A stretch of 55,163 bases of DNA. Source: a virus (taxonomy: Duplodnaviria; Caudoviricetes). The position numbers were made by a program, and so were the translations under genes. Below are positions 15,435 through 55,163 of the stretch, piece after piece; the stretch's first letter is position 1, and each line of letters begins with the position of its first letter. The notes under the pieces are model-generated. The model did no database searches. It had not been told where the DNA came from and saw only the letters and a program-made list of their open reading frames with translations. The stretch spans positions 1-55,163 of the IMG/VR virus record IMGVR_UViG_3300021976_000002; one strand, given 5' to 3'.

Positions 15435-15743
15435 TCAGGGATTCAGGTCTTCGCCAATGACAAGAGACAAGAAGCCCCGCTCTGGGAATGTCTGGATCAC
15501 ACTACCAACACGTGTCTCCAGTTCGAGAGACCAGAGTCCGACGTTCTCAGTCTCCTCAGCTGTGAAGGTAATAGTAGCTACCTTGCCAAGGACGGTATCG
15601 ACTGTCCTGTTAATGATAGGCGTGCCCTGCTTGCGTCCGATAACAATGTATGTGTCAGCAGCACTCGGCAGGTCGTCGGAGGCCATCCACTGCTTGGTAG
15701 GAGTGTCGCCCCTCTTGATGTATGTCTCTCGTGGGCTAGCCAT
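15435..15743 (-). CDS. Virion protein, BppU N-terminal-like
   Basis: IKRGDT...QTFP pattern; follows the GDPD protein. Confidence 0.55.
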   Translation of the reverse strand: MASPRETYIKRGDTPTKQWMASDDLPSAADTYIVIGRKQGTPIINRTVDTVLGKVATITFTAEETENVGLWSLELETRVGSVIQTFPERGFLSLVIGEDLNP

Positions 15744-17691
15744 TCGGTCCTCCGAAGTGAATTAGGTCGTCATCAGTATCCAAGACTGCTTCCAAGGTCG
15801 TAGCAGTCGAAATAGCCTCTAGTGACTTCGGTCCTGGAATCTCAGGTGTAGGATCAGAGCCTGAGATCGTGAAGGCAATGACAAGGTCGACTCCAGTAGT
15901 ACCAGATGGAATCGTAGGTGTTGGTGCCTCGCCCACTATGGAAGTGGACGTAACAGTCATCAGGCTAGTCTCACCCGTAGGAATGACTGCTGCAGGATCT
16001 TGTCCGGTGATAGAGAACGTGGTGACAGTATTGAGCTCGGCTGCACCCTGTGGTACTGATGGAGTAGGAGACTCGCCACTAACCTCGATGACTGTGACCG
16101 TATCGAGCTCTGCACTACCACTAGGAACGGTGGGCGTAGGAGATGCTCCCTCGACACTGATGCCGATAGTTGTTTCTGTCGCCACACTCCCAGTAGGAAC
16201 AGGAATGAGAGGGGCTTCCCCCTGAATGGAGAGGGCGGTAACAGTTTGCGTAATAGCTGAGCCAGAAGGAATGACCTGAGGGATGACACCGATGACCTTA
16301 CCAGTCATGATGCCATTGGCACCCTTACTGAAGGCCTCGGTGGCGTTGGCAGCGTTCAGGATCACATGTCCGAGAACAGGCTTACCATAGGCGAGCGTGT
16401 CGTCCCAGGCACCCTGAGTGGCGAGGTACTCCATACCAAGGTAGTCGTACGCTCCTTGGGTCTCAGCCATGTCAGGAAGGTTCTCTTCGTAGTAGTAGCC
16501 CCACGTGTGGTAGCCACGAGCCCGAACTAGGTCGGCTACTACGACAGTATCCCACCAATGCTTAGACACATACCGACTAGCACCAGCATAGGAGTCCATC
16601 AGGTCAAGCCACTCGTTGACGAACCAGTTGCCCCACTTGTTGTCCACGAAGATGATATGGGTATCACCATAGGCGTCGAGTAGATCAGTAAGCCTGACCA
16701 TCGGGTGATCGCCATCGGTCGTCCGCAGTGTCTCAAGGACTGCCCACGTCGTATCAGGGATGTTGTAGGTGTCTCCGAACATCCTCGTCGTAGTAGCATC
16801 GTGTGAGATCACCCAGACACCGTCAATGCTCCGATGGATCGAAGCTTCTAGTGCCTTAGCTCCATAGGCTACTGCAGCATCAAAGGCCGCCATCGTGTTC
16901 TCAACATAGTCAACCGAGCCACCACGGTGTGCCACATACACTGGCTCGTCCGCCATGAACACTTCGACCGGAGTAGGAGGGTGTTCCTCTTCAACAGTCA
17001 ATGCTAGGCTCAGAGCGAACTCAGCATTCTCTTCCGGAACAACTGAGCTAGCAGTCTTCAGAGCCAGGATCGCGGCAGAGGCCACCGTAGTCGAAGCAGA
17101 GGCTGTCGCGGTCATCGAGTGCGAGCCAGCTGTCACGTTACCAGCGTCTGCTCCCATGAGTGACACAGAGCCACCAGCTTGAATCTGACGACGAAGGTTG
17201 TGTGCTGTAGTGTAGGTAGATCCGTTACGGTCGGACCATCCTGCCACTAGCATACGAATGTCAGCTACAGAGATGCTCGCCGTAGTGCGAACGGTATTCC
17301 CTAGCGCACCAGAGTATGCTGCCTCTCCAGACACTACTGGCTCGGCTAGATCAACTCCGGAGTAGCAAGCAATGAAGGCTGCAGCATTGCCACCACTAGG
17401 GGCGGTGTAGTCCCAAACGAAGTCCGCCTCGTCACCTGTGTAGGGCTTACCGTAGACATTGATCCGCGTACTAGTTCCGGAGCCAGGGTCGTTACCGCCG
17501 ACATGAAGTACCCAACCATCGGGAGGAGTAACGACTGGGTCGTTGTTAGCACCTGCTGCCTGCACAGTGACAAAGGCCAGCATGTACTGACCAACAGCAG
17601 CCTCAACCGGTGGCAATGGATTGACTGAGGTAGCTGTATTGTTGGTCGGAGTGATAACAGCTACACCGGCTGCGACGAATGCAATGGCCAT
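15736..17691 (-). CDS. Virion protein with glycerophosphodiester phosphodiesterase (GDPD) domain and six 24-aa repeats
   Basis: VAHRGG...ENTMAAF...DGVWVISHD motif. C-terminal repeats of roughly P-x-G...T...I-x-G-x-x-P. Confidence 0.8.
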   Translation of the reverse strand: MAIAFVAAGVAVITPTNNTATSVNPLPPVEAAVGQYMLAFVTVQAAGANNDPVVTPPDGWVLHVGGNDPGSGTSTRINVYGKPYTGDEADFVWDYTAPSGGNAAAFIACYSGVDLAEPVVSGEAAYSGALGNTVRTTASISVADIRMLVAGWSDRNGSTYTTAHNLRRQIQAGGSVSLMGADAGNVTAGSHSMTATASASTTVASAAILALKTASSVVPEENAEFALSLALTVEEEHPPTPVEVFMADEPVYVAHRGGSVDYVENTMAAFDAAVAYGAKALEASIHRSIDGVWVISHDATTTRMFGDTYNIPDTTWAVLETLRTTDGDHPMVRLTDLLDAYGDTHIIFVDNKWGNWFVNEWLDLMDSYAGASRYVSKHWWDTVVVADLVRARGYHTWGYYYEENLPDMAETQGAYDYLGMEYLATQGAWDDTLAYGKPVLGHVILNAANATEAFSKGANGIMTGKVIGVIPQVIPSGSAITQTVTALSIQGEAPLIPVPTGSVATETTIGISVEGASPTPTVPSGSAELDTVTVIEVSGESPTPSVPQGAAELNTVTTFSITGQDPAAVIPTGETSLMTVTSTSIVGEAPTPTIPSGTTGVDLVIAFTISGSDPTPEIPGPKSLEAISTATTLEAVLDTDDDLIHFGGPNG

Positions 17692-28746: not shown

Positions 28747-28822
28747 GGACTGGTAGCTCAGAGGTCAGAGCAAGGGACTCTTAATCCCTGGGTCGTGGGT
28801 TCGACTCCCACTCAGTCCACCA
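28747..28822 (+). tRNA. tRNA-Lys(CUU)
   Basis: Canonical 76-nt cloverleaf: AGGGA-CTCTTAA-TCCCT anticodon arm, GTGGG-TTCGACT-CCCAC T-arm, encoded CCA. Confidence 0.95.
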
Positions 28823-34323: not shown

Positions 34324-34755
34324 ATGATCATGGTGGGCTTTCCCATTGAACGGTTCCTAGCCAAGGCAGACAAGCAAGAAGATCATTGGCTATGGACTGG
34401 CGCTAAGGGAGGCAGCAGTAAGACCTATGGCGTCTTTACTTGGGTTGCTGGACCAGAAGAACAATACACCAAGATGGCTCATGTCTGGTCGTATTTATAT
34501 TTCGTCGGTCCCATTCCTCAAGACTATGAAGTGGATCATAGATGTAAGATTCGACTATGTGTACGACCCGAATGCCTAGAGGCTGTCACTAAAGAAGTCA
34601 ACAACATTCGTAAGCGAAAGACCCATTGTAAGAATGGTCACGAGCTTACACCTGAAAATGTCTATGTCCATCCTAGCACAGGCAGCATCCATGGATGCAA
34701 GAAGTGCCGAAGAGAAGCCTTTCTTAAATGGAAAGGTCGAGGAGGTGATGCCTAA
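34324..34755 (+). CDS. HNH homing endonuclease
   Basis: WLWTG, YGVF, AHVWSY, VDHRC..RLCVRP..LEAVT..N motifs, plus a THCKNGHE...CKKC zinc module. Confidence 0.9.
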   Translation: MIMVGFPIERFLAKADKQEDHWLWTGAKGGSSKTYGVFTWVAGPEEQYTKMAHVWSYLYFVGPIPQDYEVDHRCKIRLCVRPECLEAVTKEVNNIRKRKTHCKNGHELTPENVYVHPSTGSIHGCKKCRREAFLKWKGRGGDA

Positions 34756-36238
34756 TGTCTCTTAACCTTTACCCCTTCCAGAAGGAAGATATCGCCAAGC
34801 TCGAAGCACATGGCTCTGGCCTAATTGGTTCAGAGATGGGTTAGGTACCGGAAAAACTCACGAGGCGATTGCTCTCGACGAGGCATGGTACTCCAACAGG
34901 CCCACCCTAGTCATTGCCCCCTTGAACACATTCGACTCTTGGCAAGAGAAGTATGGCACACAGTCATCGCAGTCGGATGTCACGGTCATCGATAGGAAGA
35001 ACCGTACCAAGTTCCTCGATGCCATTCGCAAGCGACAGGGCGATGTCTTCTTGATGCACTGGGACGCACTGAGACTAATGCCTGAGCTTCGCAACATTCA
35101 ATTCGGTACCATCATTGGCGATGAGGTCCACCGCATTGCGAACCGAAAGGCCCAGAGCACTCTCGCAGCTAAGAAGTTGCAGGCACTCCACAAGCTAGGT
35201 CTGTCCGGCACAGCCACGGGCGATCAGCCAGCCAACCTGTGGTCTGTGCTCAGCTGGTTGTACCCGAAACAGTATTCCAGTTACTGGCGGTTCAGGAAGA
35301 GGTACTGTGTTGAGGAACTTGTCGGAGACCCAACTGGACGCACTCGCGGCTATACTAAGATCACCGGTGTCCAGAATGTGGCTCAGCTCCATGAAGAGCT
35401 CGAACCCTTCTTCGTGCGGCACCTCAAGCGAGAGCAGTGCTGCGACCATCACCCCGACGGAGTCATGGACTGGCTCCCCGACAAAACGTACGAGTCCATT
35501 TGGGTCCAGCTCACTCCTACCCAACGACGGTTCTACGAACAGATGCGAAAGGAAATGGTGGCCTGGGTTGGCGAGCATGAGAATAGCCCACTCATGGCCT
35601 CGGTCGTCGTCGCGCAGATGGTTCGTCTGAGCCAGATGGCCCTAGCCACTCCTGAGATCTACACCAAGATGGTTCGTCATCGTAAGCCTGATGGAACATT
35701 GAGTGACCCTGAACCTGTAGAGGCCGTCAAGCTCCTGGAGCCGTCCTCGAAGCTTGATGCTGTACAGGAGAGGCTACTGGACCATGGGAGCAAACAGTTC
35801 GTTGTAGCATCCTCGTCCAAGCAGATCTGTTACCTGGCTCAGGAGAAGTTCGCCAAGAAAGGTATCAGCTCGTTCGTCCTTAGCGGTGACACACCACAGG
35901 AGGAACGAGATGGAATGGTGCAGCGCTTTGTCAACGGAGACACACAGCTCTTCATTGGTGTCATCGAAGCTATGGCGGAGGGTATTGATGGACTGCAGCA
36001 TGCAACAGACACGATGATCTTCCTCGACAGGTCCTGGCGGACGGTAAAGAACAAGCAGTGCGAAGATCGTCTGCACCGAGATGGACAGAAGGACACTGTG
36101 CAGATCATTGACGTCATTGCACGTGACACTCTGGACATGGGCCGACTCCAGAGGCTCGAGACCAAGTGGTCATGGATCAAATCGATTCTCGGCGACCCAG
36201 CTAAGGCACAGGAACTCGTACTGAAAGGAATGATGTAA
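34755..36238 (+). CDS. SNF2-like DNA helicase interrupted by a 5-nt insert in Walker A
   Basis: A 29-aa ORF (LYPFQ...SEMG, stop at 34842-34844) is followed in another frame by TGKT, DEVH, LSGT, EGID and QCEDRLHRDGQ motifs. Confidence 0.85.
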
Positions 36239-41281: not shown

Positions 41282-43480
41282 TTGACAGGCATTGGTTCGC
41301 CGGAGGAGAACAAGAGGCTCCGTGGAGTCTTCTTCGACTCCATTTTCGGCAAGCACAATGGCTGGGTATGTCTTGCCTTTCTACCCGCAGCTGACCGTAA
41401 GAAGTTCCGAGAAGAGTATTACCGTTACCCCGAAGAGACGTCTCAGATGCTGGACGCTGTTGAGGCTAACCTCTCGGGCAACAATATCTATTTCTGTCCT
41501 CAGCTCCTGAGTGAGAAGCGTAGACAAAAGCAATACGTTTCATCCACTCCGAACCTCTGGTCGGACTTGGACTTCTGTGAACCAGCTAACCTCCTTGTCG
41601 AGCCGACAGTAACTATAGAGTCCTCCCCAGATAGGTACCAAGCGTACTGGGTGCTCGACAAGGTCGTTGATGTAGACGATGCGGAAGATCTTAGCAAGCG
41701 CATTGCCTACAAGCATGCTGATCAGGGTGCGGATAGAACAGGCTGGGACCTTACCCAGCTATTGCGAGTTCCACTTACGTACAACTACAAGTACAACAAG
41801 CTAGCCCCTCCGGTAGTGAAGACTATCAACTTCAACCGGACACGATATAGAATAAGCGACTTCGAAGAATACCCCAAGGTCGAAGGGTATGCCTACGTCG
41901 ATGTTGAGATGCCTGACATATCAGAGTATCCCAACGCAGATGAATTGCTCGACAGACGTAGGCTTCAACTCAACCCCAGGGTCTGGCATTCGTATAGTGA
42001 AGAGCCTGCAGAGGACTGGAGCGGTGTCCTTTGGAACCTCCACCTGATGCTACTCGAAGCTGGCTACGATCGCAATGAGACATTCATCATTGTACGAGAA
42101 GCCAAGTGCAACAAGTATGTTAGAGATGGCAAGTCTGAAAAGCTCCTGTGGAAAGAAGTTGTTAGAGCCGATACTAAGAATGAGTTGAACCTAAGACTCA
42201 TTGCTGGCATTGGTGACAACGAAGATTCACAACCACTTCTTTCCGACAAGGAAAGGTCTAAGCTCGAACGAGACCCAGACACCTTCATTGAACGGTTCCA
42301 ACAGTGGGCGCGGTCCCTAGGTGATGCAGCACCACAGTACCACCAGGCCGGAGCTTTCGTGGCACTGTCATCTCTACTCGCAGGTGCGGTACGATTGCCA
42401 ACATCATTCGGTACGATCATCCCCAACCTGTGGTTTATGATCCTGGCAGACACAACTCTTACCAGGAAGTCGACTGCGATGGACATTGCTATCGACATGG
42501 TGATGGAGATCGACCCGGACTCAATGTTGGCTACTGATGGATCTCTAGAGGGTTTGTTGACAGCATTGTCAATGAGGCCCGGCAAGCCATCTATCTTCCT
42601 GCGAGACGAGTTCTCTGGACTGCTTGAGATGATCACTAAGAAGGACTACTACTCAGGCATGCCGGAGCTACTCACTAAGCTGTACGATGGTAAGATGCAG
42701 AAGAGGATCTTGCGCAAGGAGACCATTGAAGTCCGAGAGCCCATCCTGATCTTCTTCGCAGGTGGTATCAAGGACAAGATCACTGGACTGCTAACGCATG
42801 AGCACGTCAGCTCTGGCTTCATGCCTAGGTTCGTATTCATCACAGCTGAATCGGACATCAACAGGCTGAAGCCGATCGGCCCCCCAACGGCAACCACCAC
42901 AGGGTCTGGGGATGCCATCCGCAATGAGTTGATGGACATCTTCTCGTACTACCGTAAGCCAATACACATGACAGTTCAGAAGACAGCAGCCGTGCTAGAC
43001 GAGCCTATGAAGTTCGAGGCAGAGCTAACTGGGGATGCTTGGGTCAGGTACAACATCCTGGAATCGGATATGCTGTCCGCTGGGCTCGCTATGGAGAAGC
43101 CCGACATGATGACTCCTACCTACGACAGGCTCAGCAAGTCCATTCTCAAGGCTGCCATTCTTCTTTCGGCAGCACGGCAGCGTAGTGAGAAGTTGGTCGT
43201 GGAAGAGATCGATATCATTCGGGCTATTAGCTACGGAGAGCAATGGCGCACGCATGCCAATGAGGTCATGATCAATGTTGGGAAGGGTACCTACGAGAGG
43301 CAACTGGATACTATTGTCCGAGCCATTGAGAGGACACCAGGTGTTACTCGTTCGAAAATCATGCAGTGGTACCATCTCAGCTCGCGCTCTGCATCCGAAA
43401 TGTTCGACACGCTAGAGCAGCGCGGTGCTATCAAACGCATTCGCGCTGGCAGAACCGAAACGTTCCACTCACTACGCTAG
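41282..43480 (+). CDS. Primase-helicase (RepB/AEP-like primase plus DUF3987-like P-loop domain)
   Basis: LWSDLD, ESSPDRYQAYW, LLRVP; TRKST, LRDEF, LTKLYDG and SGFMPRF. TTG start after GGGGAG. Confidence 0.85.
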   Translation: MTGIGSPEENKRLRGVFFDSIFGKHNGWVCLAFLPAADRKKFREEYYRYPEETSQMLDAVEANLSGNNIYFCPQLLSEKRRQKQYVSSTPNLWSDLDFCEPANLLVEPTVTIESSPDRYQAYWVLDKVVDVDDAEDLSKRIAYKHADQGADRTGWDLTQLLRVPLTYNYKYNKLAPPVVKTINFNRTRYRISDFEEYPKVEGYAYVDVEMPDISEYPNADELLDRRRLQLNPRVWHSYSEEPAEDWSGVLWNLHLMLLEAGYDRNETFIIVREAKCNKYVRDGKSEKLLWKEVVRADTKNELNLRLIAGIGDNEDSQPLLSDKERSKLERDPDTFIERFQQWARSLGDAAPQYHQAGAFVALSSLLAGAVRLPTSFGTIIPNLWFMILADTTLTRKSTAMDIAIDMVMEIDPDSMLATDGSLEGLLTALSMRPGKPSIFLRDEFSGLLEMITKKDYYSGMPELLTKLYDGKMQKRILRKETIEVREPILIFFAGGIKDKITGLLTHEHVSSGFMPRFVFITAESDINRLKPIGPPTATTTGSGDAIRNELMDIFSYYRKPIHMTVQKTAAVLDEPMKFEAELTGDAWVRYNILESDMLSAGLAMEKPDMMTPTYDRLSKSILKAAILLSAARQRSEKLVVEEIDIIRAISYGEQWRTHANEVMINVGKGTYERQLDTIVRAIERTPGVTRSKIMQWYHLSSRSASEMFDTLEQRGAIKRIRAGRTETFHSLR

Positions 43481-43491
43481 GAGTATTCCCC

Positions 43492-44256
43492 ATGACTGTA
43501 CCTCAGAAGCTTGTCGTCGTTCTCTCTGGAGGACTGGACAGTACTACTCTCCTGTACGATGCGGTGGCTCAAGGCGCCGATGTTGTTCGGGCCGTCAGCT
43601 TCAACTACGGACAGAGGCACAAGAAGGAATTGGACTACGCTAAGCAGTCCGCAGAGAAGCTCAGCATCAAGCACACCGTTATCGACCTGTGGTCGTCGGG
43701 TCTGACTGAGGCGTTTTCCAATTCGGAAAGCTCGCTGGTCACGGACACCGATGTGCCTGAGGGACACTACGGCGAGGAGTCGATGAAGGCTACTGTCGTT
43801 CCCAACCGCAACATGATCATGCTCAGCATCGCAGGTGGCATTGCCGTAGCTGATGGTGCCAATGCCGTCGCTACTGGTGTGCATGCTGGCGACCACTTCA
43901 TTTACCCTGACTGCCGACCTGCATTCATTAGCACAGCCGCCTCGGCCTTGGCTCTAGGCAACGATGGCTTCGGCTCTCTCGACGTGGCTCCCATCTTCAC
44001 GCCGTACATCTTCCGGAGCAAGAACGATATTGCCTTCCGGGCTATCGAGTTGGACGTTCCTCTTCACGAGACTTGGTCTTGCTACAACGGACGAGAGAAC
44101 CATTGCGGGCGATGCGGCACTTGTGTCGAGCGCTTGGAGTCCATTGACTGGGCGGTCAACAAGTTCCTGGACGAGTACAATGTTGAGGTCGAGGATCACA
44201 CCATGTACGAGGACGACGCGTACTGGCGAGAGGCTCTCAAGAGGGAGACGGTCTAA
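43492..44256 (+). CDS. queC: 7-cyano-7-deazaguanine synthase
   Basis: LSGGLDST, FNYGQRH, VPNRN, YPDCR and TWSCY...HCGRCGTC motifs. Confidence 0.95.
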   Translation: MTVPQKLVVVLSGGLDSTTLLYDAVAQGADVVRAVSFNYGQRHKKELDYAKQSAEKLSIKHTVIDLWSSGLTEAFSNSESSLVTDTDVPEGHYGEESMKATVVPNRNMIMLSIAGGIAVADGANAVATGVHAGDHFIYPDCRPAFISTAASALALGNDGFGSLDVAPIFTPYIFRSKNDIAFRAIELDVPLHETWSCYNGRENHCGRCGTCVERLESIDWAVNKFLDEYNVEVEDHTMYEDDAYWREALKRETV

Positions 44257-44769
44257 ATGATCGTAGCTGTCAAGCACAACTTCGAGACGGCACATCGTCT
44301 ACCTTTCCTCGAAGGCAAGTGCCAGAGCATCCACGGTCACTCGTGGTGGGTGGAGTGGCAATTCGAGAAGCCAGTTGACTCCAACGGTCTGACTGTTGAG
44401 TACGGAACGATGAAGCGTCACCTCCGGGATTGGGTTGACACCTATCTCGACCACGGAACAATGCTTGGCATTAACGATCCTTTGTGGCAAGCATTCAAGG
44501 ATGATATTGGCTGTAAGCTCTTCACCTTCGGAGCCTCTAGCAAAGAGTTCATGAGCACTGCTGACCATAAGTGGCCTACAGTAGAAGCTGTCGCTCAGCT
44601 TCTAGCAAATGTAGGCGAAGGGCTTATTGGAGAAGCTCAGATCGTCAGAGTCGAAGTTCAAGAGACGCATGTCAACAAAGCTATCTGGACACCAACTGAG
44701 AACGACATCGAGTATCAGAGGAGAGTTCGTGAACCCGCTCAAGACACTTTCGGGCAACGATCGAAGTGA
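44257..44769 (+). CDS. queD: 6-carboxy-5,6,7,8-tetrahydropterin synthase
   Basis: FETAHRL, CQSIHGHSW, LDH, PTVE and VQET motifs. Confidence 0.93.
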   Translation: MIVAVKHNFETAHRLPFLEGKCQSIHGHSWWVEWQFEKPVDSNGLTVEYGTMKRHLRDWVDTYLDHGTMLGINDPLWQAFKDDIGCKLFTFGASSKEFMSTADHKWPTVEAVAQLLANVGEGLIGEAQIVRVEVQETHVNKAIWTPTENDIEYQRRVREPAQDTFGQRSK

Positions 44770-44920
44770 AGAGCCTGACTCGTTGTACCAACTGTACACG
44801 ATGCATGGGCTAAGGGACGGCAAGCATGTCTATGCTGGAACGGTTACTCGTAGCGACCGTGACCGACGCCGCGCAAAGAATCGGGTGGCTAAGAAGTCCA
44901 GGAAGAGGAACCGTGGCTGA
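44729..44920 (+). CDS. Small basic protein
   Basis: GAGGAG RBS before GTG; HVYAGTV...RRRAKNRVAKKSRKRNR. Confidence 0.5.
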   Translation: MNPLKTLSGNDRSEEPDSLYQLYTMHGLRDGKHVYAGTVTRSDRDRRRAKNRVAKKSRKRNRG

Positions 44921-45290
44921 CCCATACCTCGAGGGTAAGGTCTCCGACTCTATCTCTGGAGGCCTCGGAGTGACTGACACCGAGTACACTCTCGATGCCA
45001 ATGATCCGTTCGAGTCGAAGCTGATCGAGATGGTCAAGCTCAATCGAATGAAGCGAGCTGACTACGCTGGCGACGAAGATCCTTGGCAGAACTTTGTTGA
45101 CAGTGCTATTCAAGTCAACGATACACCAGGCAAGTCTGTCGAGACGTTGATCGCTACCAAGCAGGCTCGACTTCGGCAGCTTCTGTTCACTGGTCGCGCA
45201 CCCAAGAATGAAGCCGTGCGCGACACAGTCCTCGACCGTGCAGTGTATTCTGTCATTGCCCTTTCGATCTACGACCGAGGAGACTACTGA
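44913..45290 (+). CDS. Nucleotide-modification-associated domain 1 (Nmad1/DUF1599-like) protein
   Basis: KRADYA...NF...KQARL...EAVRDTVLDRAVY pattern. Confidence 0.7.
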   Translation: MADPYLEGKVSDSISGGLGVTDTEYTLDANDPFESKLIEMVKLNRMKRADYAGDEDPWQNFVDSAIQVNDTPGKSVETLIATKQARLRQLLFTGRAPKNEAVRDTVLDRAVYSVIALSIYDRGDY

Positions 45291-45535
45291 TGAGTGAGCC
45301 CAACGAACCGCTTGACCCCGAAGAGGGTGTGACTCCAGAAGGGGTTATCACCGACAATGACTTCGCATTCGGATCTAACGGAATAACTCTAGCTCCTCTC
45401 ATTCCAGTCCGTATCGAGACTAAGCAGCAGGCCTATCGAGCCGGCATCTGGATCAAGCTTATGGGTGAGTTTCTTCCTGACGAGCCAGTCGCCTCGACCT
45501 GGGAAGAGATCCAGAACGCGATTGAGGGGACCTGA
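45290..45535 (+). CDS. Acidic hypothetical protein
   Basis: Translationally coupled on both sides. Confidence 0.6.
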   Translation: MSEPNEPLDPEEGVTPEGVITDNDFAFGSNGITLAPLIPVRIETKQQAYRAGIWIKLMGEFLPDEPVASTWEEIQNAIEGT

Positions 45536-46242
45536 TGGTTGTACGAGTGAGTGAGGTCTACCTGAGTGTGCAGGGTGAAGGGCCTCGAGCTGGTCAGCGT
45601 ACGGTGTTCGTCCGATTCGGTGGATGCAACCTTCGTTGCCCCGGATGGCCCTGTGACACTCAGCACGCGATTGATCCGGCTCTTTATCGTAACGAGTGGA
45701 TCAAGACTGAGCCTGCAGACCTCGTTGAACAGATCGACAAGGTAGCAGAGAAGACCCTGAGTACTGCGATCTGCTTCACGGGCGGTGAGCCATTCCTTCA
45801 GCACCACCCCGACCTGGCTGAGGTCATGGATGGCTTGATGGTTCGAGGCTACGGAACGTATGAGTGCTTCAGCAATGGGACTATCTTGTACCCTGAATGG
45901 GCTACTCGTGAGTTGTCCTTTATCATGGACTGGAAGCTCCCAGGCTCTGGAGAGAACCATCTCAACCCAGTACGCCTGAAGAACTTGTCGAACCTTAAGG
46001 TCAAGGATGCTGTCAAGTTCGTTATCAAGGATCGAAATGACTTCGAGGTAGCCAAGGAACTGTACCTTAGGTACATCGAACGGATCCCGAATGCGTGGCG
46101 CCCTCGTACCTACTACGGTGTGGTGTGGGGAGCTATGGAGAACTCCGAACTCATCGAATGGGTTCTGGACGCCAAGCTTCCATGGTGGATAAATGTGCAA
46201 GTGCATAATTATATTTGGTCCAGGGATCAGAGAGGCATTTGA
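45535..46242 (+). CDS. queE: 7-carboxy-7-deazaguanine synthase (radical SAM)
   Basis: SVQGEG, FVRFGGCNLRC.GWPCDT, TGGEPF, KLPGSG and QVH motifs. Confidence 0.95.
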   Translation: MVVRVSEVYLSVQGEGPRAGQRTVFVRFGGCNLRCPGWPCDTQHAIDPALYRNEWIKTEPADLVEQIDKVAEKTLSTAICFTGGEPFLQHHPDLAEVMDGLMVRGYGTYECFSNGTILYPEWATRELSFIMDWKLPGSGENHLNPVRLKNLSNLKVKDAVKFVIKDRNDFEVAKELYLRYIERIPNAWRPRTYYGVVWGAMENSELIEWVLDAKLPWWINVQVHNYIWSRDQRGI

Positions 46243-46243
46243 T

Positions 46244-46822
46244 ATGCTCGAGCAGGACGCTTTGTTCGGTACGTACACTCCTGAGGGGCATGCACTCGAA
46301 ATCTTTTCCTCTTTGGAAGCTTGGGAAAGAACGAACGAGAACCACAGGGAGGATACACCAGTACGTTTCATCAATGCCCTCCGCCAGCTGACTGAACGGG
46401 AGGAGTTCAACTTCACTACGTTCGACAACGATGGCATCGACGAGATGATCACGCTTGGGCCAATTCCCTTCTACACGTTGTGTGCCCATCATGTGGTTCC
46501 CTTCTACGGCAACGCCTGGGTTGGCTACGTGCCAGATGGACGCATCGCCGGCCTGAGCAAGTTCGCTCGCGCTGTCAAGTATGTGGCGAAGGGCTTCTGG
46601 GTTCAGGAGGAGCTCACTCGAGAGCTGGCCGACTTCCTCGAGCACAAGCTGGAGCCCAAGGGCGTAGCCATCGTGATGAAGGCTGAGCACATGTGCATGG
46701 CAATGCGAGGCGTGCAGCAGCCAGGTGTGATCACTACGACATCGACCATGCGGGGTGTGTTCGCAGACCACTCTCGCACAGCGAAGGCAGAGTTCCTTCA
46801 CAATGTGAATGGAGCACACTGA
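46244..46822 (+). CDS. folE: GTP cyclohydrolase I
   Basis: DTPVR, LCAHHVVPF, GLSKFAR, VQE and AEHMCMAMRGV motifs. Confidence 0.95.
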   Translation: MLEQDALFGTYTPEGHALEIFSSLEAWERTNENHREDTPVRFINALRQLTEREEFNFTTFDNDGIDEMITLGPIPFYTLCAHHVVPFYGNAWVGYVPDGRIAGLSKFARAVKYVAKGFWVQEELTRELADFLEHKLEPKGVAIVMKAEHMCMAMRGVQQPGVITTTSTMRGVFADHSRTAKAEFLHNVNGAH

Positions 46823-47542: not shown

Positions 47543-48349
47543 ATGAAGCTGGCATTGATTCCACCAATCAGTCTTCGACATACTGCTGTGCAGAGCAGGT
47601 ACCATCTCGTCCTGCCTCAACTCCTCGAGGCGCGCGACGAGTACTTCGCCATGTACTACACCATTGCCAAAGAGATCCCAGGCAACTTCATTATCCTGGA
47701 CAATGGTGAGGCTGAGGGTGCTCAGGTTGACTTCGAGACTCTTATCTCCTACGCAGCCGAACTTGATGCTGACGAGGTTGTCCTCCCCGATGTGATGAAG
47801 GATGCACAGAGAACCATTCACCGCATTGAAGAGTTCCTACAGTGGTACGACAACTCTGAATGGGGAGGAGGACGCCGCCGCAACTTTATGTTCGTTGCCC
47901 AGGGGACAACCTACGAGGAAGTCCAGAGCATGATGGGTGAGGTGATGGAAGACAAGGAGATGTCCAAGAACATCTCTGCTGTTGGTATCCCCCGCCATCT
48001 GGTTGAGACATTAAATGACAACCAGGCTCGTGTTGAATTGGCCTACTACTTCCACGAGCGGTACAGTAACAGCGACTACGCACCTGTGGCGATCCACTTC
48101 CTCGGAGCCTCGCCTGTGTACGTTGAAGAGGTGGGCGACCTTCAATCCATTGGCATTGGCCGAGGCATGGACACGTCGCTCCCTTACAATGCAACATACC
48201 ACAGTGTGGAACTTGGAGGGCTTACGCCCGATGTTGTGAGTCGGCCGGATGGGTACTTCGACCTTGACCACCAGGCCTTCAATAGTCAACTGCTCGAGAA
48301 GAACATTCACACCATGATGGACTGGGCCCATGGTCGAACTAACTCCTAG
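47543..48349 (+). CDS. TGT/DpdA-like guanine transglycosylase (TIM barrel)
   Basis: Ordered motifs ILDNG, VLPDV, VAQG, VGIP, IHFLG and MDTS parallel the TGT catalytic core. Lies in the que cluster. Confidence 0.7.
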   Translation: MKLALIPPISLRHTAVQSRYHLVLPQLLEARDEYFAMYYTIAKEIPGNFIILDNGEAEGAQVDFETLISYAAELDADEVVLPDVMKDAQRTIHRIEEFLQWYDNSEWGGGRRRNFMFVAQGTTYEEVQSMMGEVMEDKEMSKNISAVGIPRHLVETLNDNQARVELAYYFHERYSNSDYAPVAIHFLGASPVYVEEVGDLQSIGIGRGMDTSLPYNATYHSVELGGLTPDVVSRPDGYFDLDHQAFNSQLLEKNIHTMMDWAHGRTNS

Positions 48350-50780
48350 GAATGTTACGCGCAAGCATCCGAAGGCGCGGTGCGAAGAGTGCCCCCTGTA
48401 CGAAGTTGGTAAGTTCGTACCGAGTGTTGGTCCTGCCAATGCTGAACTTGCCTTCGTCGGAGAAGCTCCAGGTGTCAAGGAGACTCGCCAGGGTATTCCC
48501 TTCACTGGTCCCTCTGGCAAGCTTCTCGACAAGGTCATGGAGCACCATGGCTTCAATAGAGAAGATGTCTTCCTGAGCAATGCTTGTCTCTGCCGACCAC
48601 CAGACAATGCGACACCAACCAAGTCAGCCATCTTCGCCTGCCGTGATAGGCTTGTCGCTGAACTAGAACAACACAACGTCAAGACTGTGGTGGCGTTGGG
48701 TAACTCGGCTGCTGAGTCGTTGCTCGGTCAGTCAGGTGTCACCAAGCTTCGAGTTGGTCCTGGCAAGCTATCGAAGTATGCCAAGGACGTTCTGGTCATC
48801 CCCACTCTACACCCTGCAGCCTGCCTTCGTCAGGGTGACATGTTCCCCTATCTCGTCACTGACGTTGGAAAGGTAAACGCTACCCATGAAGAGTGGACTG
48901 AGCCTGAGTACAGAGTCCTTGACACTACAAGGGACGCTCTCGATGCCTGTAAAGAATTGGCACGTGTACAGGGACCATTTGTTATCGACATTGAAGTTGA
49001 CATTGAAAAGGACACCGCTTACGATCATCCAAACCACTACGGTATGCTGTGCCTTGGAATCGCTTATGCCCCAAAGCGGGCAGTTGTTTTCTCTGAAGGT
49101 GTCATGGGCGAACGAGACGTTCGAGATGCGCTTGGAGGTCTTCTCCGCAACAAGAAACTTATTGCGCAGAACGGCAAGTTCGATCTAGCGGGACTCTACC
49201 CTGTCCTAGGTCCTCTCGAGCTTTGGTTCGACACCATGCTAGCTTCCTACGTCTTCGATGAACGCCCAGGCATTCATGCGCTGAAGCACATGGCTGTAGA
49301 ATACCTAGGCGCACCCCAGTACGATGACGAGGTGAAGAAGTATGTGGGACCCGGCGACGGTTACGGTGTCATTCCACGAGACGTCCTCTACAAGTACAAT
49401 GCGCTCGATGTTGCCTGTACGTATTCGCTGTACGAGATGTTCAGCAAGCGGCTCGATCTCGATCAAGCGGCGACGCCGGAAGGTCAACGATCGCTACGAG
49501 ATGTACACGACTTCCTCGTGGCAGCATCCAATCAACTCATGTACGTTGAGCTCAATGGCATTGGAGTTGACCGCGAGTATCTAGACACGCTCACGGATGA
49601 GTACCTTGATCGTCTGGATAACATCGAGCAGGACATCAACAAGATCATTGAGGGCCGTGACTACGACAAGCGTGGCGGCATCAACCCCCGATCGCCAATG
49701 CAGGTCAAGCAGTACTTGTCGGACAAGGGTATCATCACAGAGACTACTAACGAAGATGCTCTGAACATGATCAAGGATAGACTTGCAGGGATGATCCTCG
49801 ACCATGACTCAGGAACCAAGAAGCTTGGTGCCTCAGAAAACGTAGCCAGGGAGGTGTTGTCTTTTGTGCAGACGCTGCTCACGCATCGTCGCGAGGCTAA
49901 GCTCTACGGAACGTACGTCAAGGGTATCCGTAAGCGTATGTCCAGGGGAAGAGTGTTCCCCACCTTCTTGCTCCACGGTACTACGACCGGACGGCTTGCT
50001 TGCCGTAACCCTAACATGCAAAACATTCCACGTGAGTCGACTATTCGACGTCTCTTCGTACCATCAAAGCCTGATCACGTCTTCGTGGAGACCGACTATA
50101 GTCAGGCTGAGTTGCGGGTGCTCAGTTACCTTGCAGGCGACACTTACTTCCGTGACATCTTCAACGGAGGAGAGCGTGACCTCTTTGATGAGCTGACTCC
50201 CATTCTGTATCCGGAGTTGCAGAGTAAGGAAGCCTGCCCTCCCGAGCTGTGGAAAGAGATCCGGATTCGAGTCAAGGCTTACGTGTACGGTCTCTCCTAC
50301 GGACGCTCTGAGTTCTCTATTGCCGACGAGTACAAGATCAGTGTTAAGGAAGCCCGCAAGGGTATGTATGCCTTCTTCGATGTCATCCCAGAGATCGTTA
50401 CCTTCAGGAACGAGACGAAGAAGAAGGTGCTAGCCGGAGAGGACCTCATCACTCCTTGGGGTCGACACCGTCGCTACAGTCTCATCACGAAGGAGAACAA
50501 GGACTCCATTCTTCGAGAGGCTCTAGCCTTCCTCCCTCAGAGTACTTCCTCGGACATGTGCTTGCAGGCTATGGGATGGTCTCGTCGTGACCTCAAGGGC
50601 ATCGGATGGGTTCGTAACATCGTCCATGACTCTGTACTCGTTGAGTGTCACGAAGAGGATCAGGATGAAGTCAAGCAGATCGTAGAGACGCACATGATCG
50701 AATCTGCCAAGACGATCGTCGGTGACTACGTCAAGTTCGCCGTTGAGTCGAAGACTGGAAAGAGCTGGGCCAAGACATGA
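48330..50780 (+). CDS. Family A DNA polymerase with N-terminal family-4 uracil-DNA glycosylase domain
   Basis: UDG: CEECPL, VGEAPG, CRP, HPA. Exonuclease: DIE, NGKFD, YNALD. Polymerase: TTTGRL, DYSQAELR, K...YG..YG, VHD. Confidence 0.93.
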   Translation: MVELTPRNVTRKHPKARCEECPLYEVGKFVPSVGPANAELAFVGEAPGVKETRQGIPFTGPSGKLLDKVMEHHGFNREDVFLSNACLCRPPDNATPTKSAIFACRDRLVAELEQHNVKTVVALGNSAAESLLGQSGVTKLRVGPGKLSKYAKDVLVIPTLHPAACLRQGDMFPYLVTDVGKVNATHEEWTEPEYRVLDTTRDALDACKELARVQGPFVIDIEVDIEKDTAYDHPNHYGMLCLGIAYAPKRAVVFSEGVMGERDVRDALGGLLRNKKLIAQNGKFDLAGLYPVLGPLELWFDTMLASYVFDERPGIHALKHMAVEYLGAPQYDDEVKKYVGPGDGYGVIPRDVLYKYNALDVACTYSLYEMFSKRLDLDQAATPEGQRSLRDVHDFLVAASNQLMYVELNGIGVDREYLDTLTDEYLDRLDNIEQDINKIIEGRDYDKRGGINPRSPMQVKQYLSDKGIITETTNEDALNMIKDRLAGMILDHDSGTKKLGASENVAREVLSFVQTLLTHRREAKLYGTYVKGIRKRMSRGRVFPTFLLHGTTTGRLACRNPNMQNIPRESTIRRLFVPSKPDHVFVETDYSQAELRVLSYLAGDTYFRDIFNGGERDLFDELTPILYPELQSKEACPPELWKEIRIRVKAYVYGLSYGRSEFSIADEYKISVKEARKGMYAFFDVIPEIVTFRNETKKKVLAGEDLITPWGRHRRYSLITKENKDSILREALAFLPQSTSSDMCLQAMGWSRRDLKGIGWVRNIVHDSVLVECHEEDQDEVKQIVETHMIESAKTIVGDYVKFAVESKTGKSWAKT

Positions 50781-54919: not shown

Positions 54920-55163
54920 TCCTGTACCCCCGCAATGCGTCTGTAATGCATTGCCATGTCCTCTGCTTCATGTCGCCTGGTGCGTTCGGCCTCAACCTGT
55001 TGCTGCAGTTCATCGACTCTGTCTGTCAGCCGTGCTACTTGTGTACGAAGATCATCGATCTGTTTAGCATGACGCTCTTCTAGATCTTTGACTTCCTTAG
55101 AATGGTCTTCCCGTTCCTTTGTGAGAGTGGCGCTGTAATCCTTACGGTCTCCGCTACTCTGTC
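54916..55163 (-). CDS. 3' part of the junction-spanning TM/coiled-coil protein
   Basis: Same frame continues to TGA at 54916-54918, which overlaps the ATG of the next gene (ATGA). Confidence 0.8.
   Translation of the reverse strand, partial: QSSGDRKDYSATLTKEREDHSKEVKDLEERHAKQIDDLRTQVARLTDRVDELQQQVEAERTRRHEAEDMAMHYRRIAGVQE
55037..55163. repeat. Terminal overlap identical to 1-127
   Basis: Exact duplicate of the first 127 bases. Confidence 0.95.

Follow-up and report, generated by a model that had tools for sequence, protein, structure and literature searches.

The window analyzed in this study is the complete viral record IMGVR_UViG_3300021976_000002 (Duplodnaviria; Caudoviricetes), a stretch of 55,163 nucleotides (nt). 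It contains, in direct succession, the gene of a free-standing HNH endonuclease and the gene of an SNF2-family helicase with an SNF2 N-domain and a Helicase_C domain. Within the latter, the Walker A motif M-G-x-G-K-T (P-loop) is interrupted by five extra bases that begin with an in-frame stop codon. An initial annotation of this DNA had suggested that ribosomes skip these bases, in a minimal analogue of the bypassing known from T4 gene 60.

The HNH gene (34324..34755, plus strand) encodes 143 amino acids and matched Pfam HNH_3 (PF13392; 6.4e-13 on 34324..34752) and PHROG 826 'HNH endonuclease' (9.9e-38). Its TAA (34753-34755) overlaps the ATG of the helicase (34755-34757) in the sequence TAATG, and an AGGAGG ribosome-binding site was read at 34740..34745 on the same strand, 9 nt 5' of this ATG. 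The first part of the helicase gene (34755..34841, plus strand) consists of 29 codons in frame 0, MSLNLYPFQKEDIAKLEAHGSGLIGSEMG, which extend from the Q-motif YPFQ to GSEMG and align with the N-termini of homologues. The last of these codons, GGT at 34839..34841, encodes the first Gly of M-G-x-G-K-T and is the proposed take-off codon. It is immediately followed by TAG (34842..34844), whose last base opens a second GGT at 34844..34846, the proposed landing codon, 5 nt past the first (all on the plus strand). The second part of the gene, TGKTHEAIALDE..., runs from 34847 to 36238 on the plus strand and comprises 463 codons up to its stop, with SNF2-rel_dom (PF00176; 1e-25) and Helicase_C (PF00271; 1e-10) recognized by Pfam. 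The DNA across the gap (34833-34858) reads GAG ATG GGT TAG GT ACC GGA AAA ACT.

In the downstream frame, an open stretch spans 34766 to 36238. It holds no ATG, GTG or TTG before a TTG at 34922, which lies beyond Walker A, and no CTG, ATT, ATC or ATA was found in its codons before TGKT. Joining the 29 codons to ACC at 34847 yields a protein of 29 + 463 = 492 amino acids, and Walker A is restored only across the gap. The initial annotation had described the helicase start with its ribosome-binding site and TAATG overlap, the 29 codons ending at TAG, the downstream frame lacking a start before TGKT and the 492-amino acid join, and these held on re-reading of the sequence. Characteristics of a bypass site were hence seen in the window: two open reading frames (ORFs) of one protein with a gap between them, the second lacking its own start, a stop codon directly after the take-off codon, and a landing triplet GGT cognate to the take-off GGT.

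A search with the window helicase protein returned 576 relatives, of which the best 120 were taken; one was the window's own 438-amino acid protein call, leaving 119 homologues for comparison. The motif M[GA]-x-GK[TS] is unbroken in 110 of the 119, reading SEMGTGKT in 79, and a Walker A loop with extra residues was found in none. The remaining nine protein calls lack the N-terminus (P0048, P0073, P0075, P0080, P0087, P0113, P0114, P0115, and P0118). One of them, P0048, corresponds to the insert-bearing loci L144 and L146 described below, and the insert explains its truncated call; further insert cases may exist among the nine. At the DNA level, all seven related viral contigs (44-66% identity) read GAGATGGGnACnGGnAAGAC in a single frame. 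The five bases TAGGT (34842..34846) are therefore extra relative to the family, as judged from these seven contigs and the 110 homologous proteins. As GGT is repeated, the insert may equivalently be placed at 34839-34843 (GGTTA), 34840-34844 (GTTAG) or 34841-34845 (TTAGG).

An error of sequencing or assembly was considered as an explanation for the insert. The read support consists of assembled contigs of two runs from one soil sample, possibly the source of the window, and is compatible with a rare insert-free minority. Nevertheless, two independent Logan re-assemblies of these runs showed 0 differences from the window over 34500-35200 at a word depth of ~35, which makes an assembler artefact unlikely. 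The site is no homopolymer, and the identical insert occurs in many unrelated assemblies. We thus regard an artefact as highly improbable. The two Logan contigs, of 55,066 nt, are circular permutations of each other. Among GenBank phages, megablast with 34324-36238 gave no match, and tblastn found relatives of less than 60% identity only.

The same insert was found at the same codon elsewhere. Scanning metagenome contigs for a tight E-M-G-stop pattern gave 14 matches, all of them real. Two, L144 and L146, are separate records of identical sequence that belong to the window's own clade (67% identity) and have 465 intact codons and no HNH gene; the remaining 12 are referred to as Group 2. A scan of viral contigs with a degenerate M-G-stop...T-G-K-T pattern gave 49 matches with a single real case, L056, in which an HNH_3 gene (2.8e-12) is followed by MKFTPYKHQQAGISWIIERPACALLWGMG, then ATG GGT TAG GC ACC GGG AAA and an intact SNF2 frame without its own start. 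Species-representative genomes provided five real cases among 34 pattern matches, the other 29 being due to chance; all five are metagenome-assembled genomes, and they added two further clades, L236 (FEMG-stop-CGKT) and L247 (LEMG-stop-LGKT). Altogether, the insert GGT TAG GY was found at one codon in at least four clades of SNF2 helicases: L144/L146; L057, L087, L090, L091, L092, and L093; the 12 Group 2 loci; L236; and L247. Identical insert-bearing genes were assembled from different samples in three instances (L066 = L067, L092 = L093, and L144 = L146).

The other 48 viral pattern matches were rejected: they were genes with a regular G[LVI]GTGKT in frame, for the most part helicases of giant viruses, or chance hits. 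In many giant-virus contigs among L008-L055, a Walker A of the form H-G-L-G-T-G-K-T with Leu encoded by TTA mimics the gap in another frame, a trap for pattern scans.

Two sets of helicases were gathered by protein similarity, regardless of inserts. Set A comprised the best 80 of 495 relatives found in viral contigs with the L056 helicase, of which 79 were usable (L101 lacks the N-terminus), and Set B comprised 34 loci found with a Group 2 helicase, 32 of them usable (L292 and L297 lack the N-terminus). Inserts of 4-16 nt in Walker A were present in 15/79 helicases of Set A and 8/32 of Set B, i.e. in 23 of 111, and fall into 13 types. They sit after the first Gly, the second Gly or the Met codon of M-G-x-G-K-T.

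After the first Gly, the types are GGT TAG GC (+5; L057, L087, L090, L091, L092, and L093), GGT TGA CCA GGC (+9; L066 and L067), GGT TAG CCC GGC (+9; L073), GGT TGA AC GGC (+8; L270) and GGC TGA CCC CGC (+9; L276). After the second Gly, GGC AGGC (+4; L058 and L060), GGT TGAC (+4; L086 and L130), GGC TGA CGC (+6; L081) and GGC TAA CGC CCGC (+10; L079) were found. The Met codon is followed by ATG TAG CTG (+6; L269 and L271), ATG TAGC ATC (+7; L273 and L274), ATG TAGCC ATA (+8; L278) or a 16-nt insert ending in ATT (+16; L281). No cultured phage with an insert was detected, as matches were in a single piece throughout the best 60 of 1649 and the best 25 of 1824 tblastn records, and the helicases of THSA-485A and FP_Epona, which were checked closely, are uninterrupted.

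The 13 types share features of a bypass site. The codon next to the interrupted one is a stop in 11 of them (chance 3/64 each; P = 2e-13), AGG in another and CCA in the last. In 12 types, the final inserted triplet agrees with the interrupted codon at two or more of three positions (chance 10/64 each; P = 2e-9), and five types lead from GGY to GGY, so that one tRNA reads both (P = 3e-5); these P values are rough, because the types are partly dependent, several ending in CGC. The sole exception to the landing match is type B2, GGT to GAC. Take-off at the first Gly occurs at GGT in all 5-, 8- and 9-nt inserts there except that of L276 (GGC). In the other 5-nt cases, the landing triplet is GGC, GGT or GGA, never GGG. 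A C frequently follows the stop codon (TGA C in three types, also TAG C and TAA C), and stop codons followed by C are weak termination contexts. Stop-codon reassignment was rejected as a general explanation, as sister genes have TGA and TAG at one and the same place (L066 versus L073) and most inserts shift the frame. Tandem duplication was likewise rejected as a general source of the matched codon, the 9-nt inserts sharing 3/9 bases with the preceding sequence. The 10-nt insert of L079 (~816-845) can be read by eye as a short stem-loop, GGGC-TAAC-GCCC, whose loop contains the stop codon, which recalls the take-off stem-loop of gene 60.

With a probability of roughly 0.6, we interpret the five bases of the window as a short gap within a functional SNF2 helicase gene that ribosomes leave untranslated by a +5 hop and that most likely protects the phage's copy from the HNH endonuclease. 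The ribosome would read 29 codons to GGU (34839-34841) and meet UAG in its A site. Before release, the peptidyl-tRNA-Gly would leave GGU and re-pair with GGU at 34844-34846, and decoding would resume at ACC to give ...SEMG-TGKT..., a canonical Walker A, within a 492-amino acid protein. The gap lies in the most conserved DNA of the gene and, like the 50-nt gap of T4 gene 60 beside mobA, most likely renders this copy resistant to the enzyme encoded upstream, which would cut the uninterrupted alleles of co-infecting relatives; its putative target is the region ATGGGnACnGG, near ATGGGTACCGG. In favor of the hop, it alone yields the invariant loop length of the family, and 12 of the 13 insert types can be explained by re-pairing at a triplet further on.

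A -1 slip was considered as an alternative. The peptidyl-tRNA-Gly, with UAG in the A site, would slip from GGU to GGG (34838-34840), and UUA GGU ACC would be read to give SEMG-LG-TGKT, with two extra residues. ATG always supplies a G in front of GGT, so that GGG is on hand in every case; G-L-G-T-G-K-T is a common natural spelling of the P-loop, as found among the rejected viral matches; and the 'landing' Gly codon may end in C, T or A, a variation expected of a plain decoded codon. The longer loop, however, was absent from the 119 homologues and from all 88 insert-free loci of the two sets (64 + 24), and the slip requires TTA, which accounts for 9/9142 codons (0.1%) of this phage. A slippery heptamer of the form X XXY YYZ is absent, G GGT TAG being unsuited to a tandem slip, and the RNA downstream shows no significant structure. 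The sister inserts, whether in frame (9 and 6 nt) or not (4, 7, 8, 10, and 16 nt), could not be mended by a -1 shift and fit re-pairing at a later triplet. Consequently, a slip appears unlikely to us.

Synthesis of two polypeptides, a 29-residue peptide ending at TAG and a separate C-terminal protein from a nearby restart, is a further alternative. CTG, ATC, ATA, and ATT can act as weak start codons, and it is these triplets that precede the resume codon in the Met-type inserts, where a restart is conceivable and would deliver the same residues as two chains. Moreover, the Group 2 helicase already works as two gene products. In the window, however, GGT is no start codon and the downstream frame offers no ATG, GTG, TTG, CTG or ATH before the TTG at 34922, past the P-loop, and yet TGKT, which is encoded 5' of every potential start, is kept while its codons change synonymously. 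As the P-loop is conserved upstream of any possible internal start, ribosomes appear to read it in the shifted frame, and we give separate chains very little credence.

The association with HNH genes was evaluated by tblastn with nine HNH queries from these loci and by inspection of ORFs, counting HNH genes that end within ~80 nt of the helicase start. Such a gene was found immediately upstream in 9 of the 15 insert-bearing loci of Set A and 3 of the 8 of Set B, thus in 12/23, and in none of 95 insert-free loci (64 and 24 from Sets A and B and the seven relatives of the window; Fisher test, 1.6e-10). Duplicates inflate this count (L066 = L067, and L058 is close to L060), and a cruder, de-replicated table gave 6e-7. 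In L097 and L296, HNH-like matches were confined to the region downstream of the helicase. The insert loci involve at least three HNH lineages: the window's own, the L057/L138 type (HNH_3) and the L079/L086 type, which has no Pfam match and was recognized as phrog_374 'HNH endonuclease' (8e-63). None of 80 relatives of the window's HNH protein (30-45% identity) stands beside an interrupted GK[ST] on the same strand; an odd match in L154 was due to chance.

The HNH gene of the window has a guanine plus cytosine (GC) content of 46.5%, compared to 54.2% for the helicase gene and 54.7% for the genome, and no homologue of it was found in the seven related loci. Its low GC content and its absence from these relatives make it look like a recent arrival. 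An HNH catalytic domain, sporadic occurrence among related genomes and foreign base composition are the marks of a homing endonuclease, and the window's gene shows all three. Signs of recent homing were also seen in the Group 2 pair L138/L143, in which the synonymous divergence (dS) is 0.06 for the HNH gene and 0.6 for the helicase gene, and in L087/L088, where a patch of 150-200 nt at the gap sets insert-bearing genomes apart from their insert-free sibling.

The helicase gene of Group 2 is divided in two by the HNH gene. Its N-fragment, which holds the Q-motif (...APYKHQREAF...), is followed by the HNH gene and a C-fragment that reads MNVSNGKGAALLMEMG, TAG, TGKT..., with the 5-nt gap after codon 16 of the C-fragment. 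Different stages in the decay of the HNH gene were recognized: it is full-length in 10 loci and reduced to a 50-residue remnant in L148, whereas it has been cleanly lost with the gap retained in L137, L240, and L140. Gaps without an HNH gene are also present in L144 and L087. In L269, L271, L273, L274, and L278, the N-terminal part is a single re-fused ORF and the gap is kept. In L086 (1840-2500), the HNH ORF lacks its own stop codon and continues, in the same frame, through the helicase N-terminus up to the TGA within the 4-nt insert. The SNF2 helicase of the cultured Faecalibacterium phage FP_Epona (L232, 862-2214) starts only 13 codons 5' of GKT, the Q-motif region being absent (MGKGFGFLFEMGCGKT). 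In this it is similar to the C-fragment of Group 2 minus the gap and the HNH gene, and L236 is a relative with the 5-nt gap.

The interrupted genes bear signs of function. In all 23 insert-bearing genes collected by similarity, the downstream frame is complete over 423-440 codons, as in insert-free relatives, and the pairwise ratio of non-synonymous to synonymous divergence (dN/dS) among insert-bearing helicases is 0.04-0.23. In four pairs of loci, the HNH and helicase genes have diverged to a similar extent. The pair L139/L141 showed dS values of 0.13 (HNH) and 0.15 (helicase) and a helicase dN/dS of 0.05, with 33 synonymous versus 6 non-synonymous changes (P = 8e-15 against neutrality). The corresponding values were 0.88, 0.50, and 0.17 for L066/L073, 2.5, 1.6, and 0.14 for L141/L149, and 0.39, 0.73, and 0.09 for L147/L149 (131 codons). 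As the two genes are about equally diverged, they seem to descend jointly and vertically from a cassette-bearing ancestor, with the helicase still constrained.

The codons next to the gap tell the same of both frames. Upstream of it, the window has GGT TCA GAG ATG GGT and L144 has GGC TCG GAG ATG GGT; downstream, ACC GGA AAA ACT corresponds to ACT GGT AAG ACT, so that only synonymous changes occur on either side. Among L057, L087, and L092, the flanking codons vary as GGG/GGC, AAA/AAG, and ACA/ACC/AGC. Both flanks of the gap are under purifying selection, each in a frame of its own.

Several observations weigh against the interpretation of the insert as a protective gap that is hopped over in a working gene. 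The RNA fold of 34790-34900 around the gap is not significant (z -1.18), so that a hop, if real, would work without a stem-loop like that of gene 60, as synthetic stop-hops did. The landing codon is GGA in three of the 14 metagenome cases (L139, L141, and L150), only near-cognate for tRNA-Gly(GCC), and the landing triplets GAC or CGC after the second Gly, also only near-cognate, would fit a matched-codon hop poorly. The hop and its efficiency, the target of the HNH enzyme and the destruction of its recognition site by the insert are points that we infer from sequence. The nearest insert-bearing relative of the window is only 67% identical; selection since the insertion is therefore not measurable in the window's lineage, and the gene could have been hit recently. 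Furthermore, the insert can travel. L087, L090, and L091 share a near-identical patch of 150-200 nt at the gap, while the rest of the gene is ~90% alike, and L088, which has no insert, shares 98.8% of its protein sequence with L087 past the gap but only 50-74% of the DNA within the patch. Since the insert can spread by recombination, a low dN/dS in such pairs, L138/L143 included, proves little and could reflect recent conversion of healthy genes. Two copies found by pattern are truncated, L140 with a stop after 78 codons and its HNH gene and N-fragment deleted, and L142 with a stop after 307 codons (coverage 3.7 and 2.7), and some insert-bearing copies may thus be dead; six more metagenome copies run past the contig ends. 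Finally, the window also encodes a DUF3987 primase-helicase, and the SNF2 enzyme may be dispensable.

These points lead to the alternative of a dead or dispensable gene, in which the insert would be a null mutation carried or driven by a selfish HNH gene, no full-length helicase would be made and the phage would rely on the DUF3987 enzyme. Both the insert patch and the HNH gene move horizontally, and drive could spread even a harmful allele; in addition, the dN/dS evidence comes from lineages other than that of the window. Opposed to this are the 23 intact frames, the low dN/dS (0.05-0.17) of pairs that inherited HNH gene, insert, and helicase together, and the purely synonymous variation of the gap-side codons, each side in its own frame. 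By our own arithmetic, a random 5-nt insertion would give an immediate stop and a matching +5 codon in ~1 of 1000 cases per site. The insert also outlasts the loss of the HNH gene (L137, L240, L144, and L087). Taken together, we consider a dead gene improbable, and the short-hop interpretation of the window insert is supported.

The best-known system of this kind is T4 gene 60, in which a 50-nt coding gap lies beside mobA, the gene that splits genes 39 and 60 (Huang, 1988; Bonocora, 2011; Manning & Atkins, 2022, preprint). The window resembles it in the HNH-family gene directly upstream, the take-off Gly codon followed by UAG, the matched landing codon and the position of the gap early in the downstream ORF. 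Group 2 comes closer still, with the order N-fragment, HNH gene, C-fragment corresponding to genes 39, mobA, and 60 and a gap after codon 16 compared to codon 46 in T4. Signs of a 'hit and run', in which the endonuclease is lost and the scar kept, are shared as well. Differences concern the host gene, which is an SNF2 helicase and not a topoisomerase, and the gap, which measures 5 nt (4-16 nt in relatives) instead of 50 nt and has no significant stem-loop. The nascent peptide is only 16-29 residues long, and the HNH gene of the window precedes the whole helicase gene without splitting it. At least three HNH lineages are involved, whose likeness to MobA is one of gene layout. As the host gene is not that for the large subunit of topoisomerase II, and the gap is not one of 20-50 nt with a take-off stem-loop and an internal Shine-Dalgarno sequence, the window locus is an analogue, and not a member, of the gene 60/MobA cassette. 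In homologues of gene 60, take-off is followed by UAG, UGA or the hungry codon AGG, and the same preprint covers topoisomerase cases only, the shortest gap being 20 nt (Manning & Atkins, 2022). All three codons also occur in the helicases described here; TAA, present in one type, is outside that set.

The initial annotation had asked for a check of the reads across the insert, of its co-occurrence with an HNH gene and of decay among related helicases. The five bases were retained in both re-assemblies (0 differences, depth ~35), an upstream HNH gene distinguished 12/23 insert-bearing from 0/95 insert-free loci, and 23/23 downstream frames were intact, with dN/dS of 0.05-0.17 where HNH and helicase genes had co-diverged. 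The analogy to gene 60 that it had drawn proved closer than claimed, given the split arrangement and the 5-nt gap after codon 16 in Group 2.

Synthetic stop-hops over matched codons, of +5 and +6, were described in E. coli (Weiss, Dunn, Atkins, and Gesteland, 1987, as cited in PMC5009743). Like the sites reported here, they have matched codons flanking a stop and involve re-pairing of the peptidyl-tRNA a few bases on, without elaborate signals. They were engineered, whereas the present sites are natural, recurrent and under selection. The yield of such engineered reporters was reportedly low, ~1%. According to a review published by Atkins and colleagues in 2016, short equivalents of gene 60 had long been expected in nature with none known, and no stop-hop was known to occur naturally (PMC5009743).

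Other recoding events show partial similarity. In the mitochondria of Magnusiomyces capitatus, many short untranslated inserts, the byp elements, are corrected in translation (Lang, 2014, as cited in PMC5009743). They share a poorly decoded A-site codon with the inserts described here, and differ in being mitochondrial and unlinked to endonuclease genes. Byps are 27-55 nt long, GC-rich and mobile on their own. The terminase gene of Streptomyces phage Hau3 is bypassed at a rare UUA, for which a regulatory role was proposed, and the junction peptide was found by mass spectrometry in E. coli (PMC10732093). It is likewise a phage gene decoded by bypassing, but with UUA as trigger and in a terminase, and neither a helicase nor an HNH gene is mentioned in that 2023 paper (PMC10732093). 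In +1 frameshifts of the prfB type and -1 frameshifts in the P site, a stop codon in the A site similarly gives the P-site tRNA time to re-pair. A one-base shift adds or alters residues inside G-K-T, however, and only non-overlapping re-pairing restores the motif. UGA C is the context used in prfB, and several relatives carry it. To our knowledge, natural bypassing has hardly been described beyond gene 60 of T4 with its homologues, the terminase of one Streptomyces phage and the mitochondria of yeasts. Searches of the full-text literature, subscription journals and supplements aside, brought up nothing on short gaps in phage helicase P-loops.

Beyond the locus, the window carries an exact direct repeat of 127 nt at its ends (1-127 and 55037-55163), which, together with the permuted Logan contigs, indicates a circular or terminally redundant genome of ~55,036 bp. 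Apart from the locus, the genome is orderly and phage-like; it encodes terminase, portal, capsid, and tape measure proteins, as well as a PD-(D/E)XK nuclease and an AAA_24 protein in addition to the primase-helicase. No further broken gene was found among the 20 large ORFs scanned. A tRNA-Lys (CTT) at 28747-28822 is the sole tRNA gene, and neither a suppressor tRNA nor a tRNA-Gly is encoded in the genome. Genes for QueC (8e-57), PTPS/QueD (8e-20), a radical-SAM QueE-like protein, and GTP cyclohydrolase I (FolE; 4e-47) stand in a row at 43366-46822, a set that we take to be linked to 7-deazaguanine modification of phage DNA. A family-A DNA polymerase (PolA) at 48330-50780 has an N-terminal domain of the uracil-DNA-glycosylase superfamily (5e-31), followed by a 3'-5' exonuclease domain. 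On the minus strand, a 650-amino acid protein of the structural module (15736-17691) contains a glycerophosphodiester phosphodiesterase domain (1e-15).

Considering all loci, we slightly favor the broader view that phages use a family of minimal bypass sites of 4-16 nt in the Walker A codons of SNF2 helicases, each requiring hardly more than a codon for take-off, a stop or hungry codon and a landing triplet that is near-cognate. These sites would have emerged several times, as patches that confer immunity to HNH homing endonucleases of at least three lineages, and would outlive the endonuclease gene. Dozens of natural 4-16 nt gaps with the features of bypass sites are now at hand in a new host gene, from phages of several kinds of samples, and their natural variation in gap length, stop codon identity and cognate or near-cognate landing provides a set for studying hopping. 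If the broader view is true, ribosome hopping works with minimal signals, and homing endonucleases repeatedly drive recoding. Gene callers would then routinely mis-annotate such genes as truncated, and many phage helicases called 'truncated' or 'split' would be whole genes. T4 gene 60, far from being a singular curiosity, would mark the elaborate end of a strategy common among phages.

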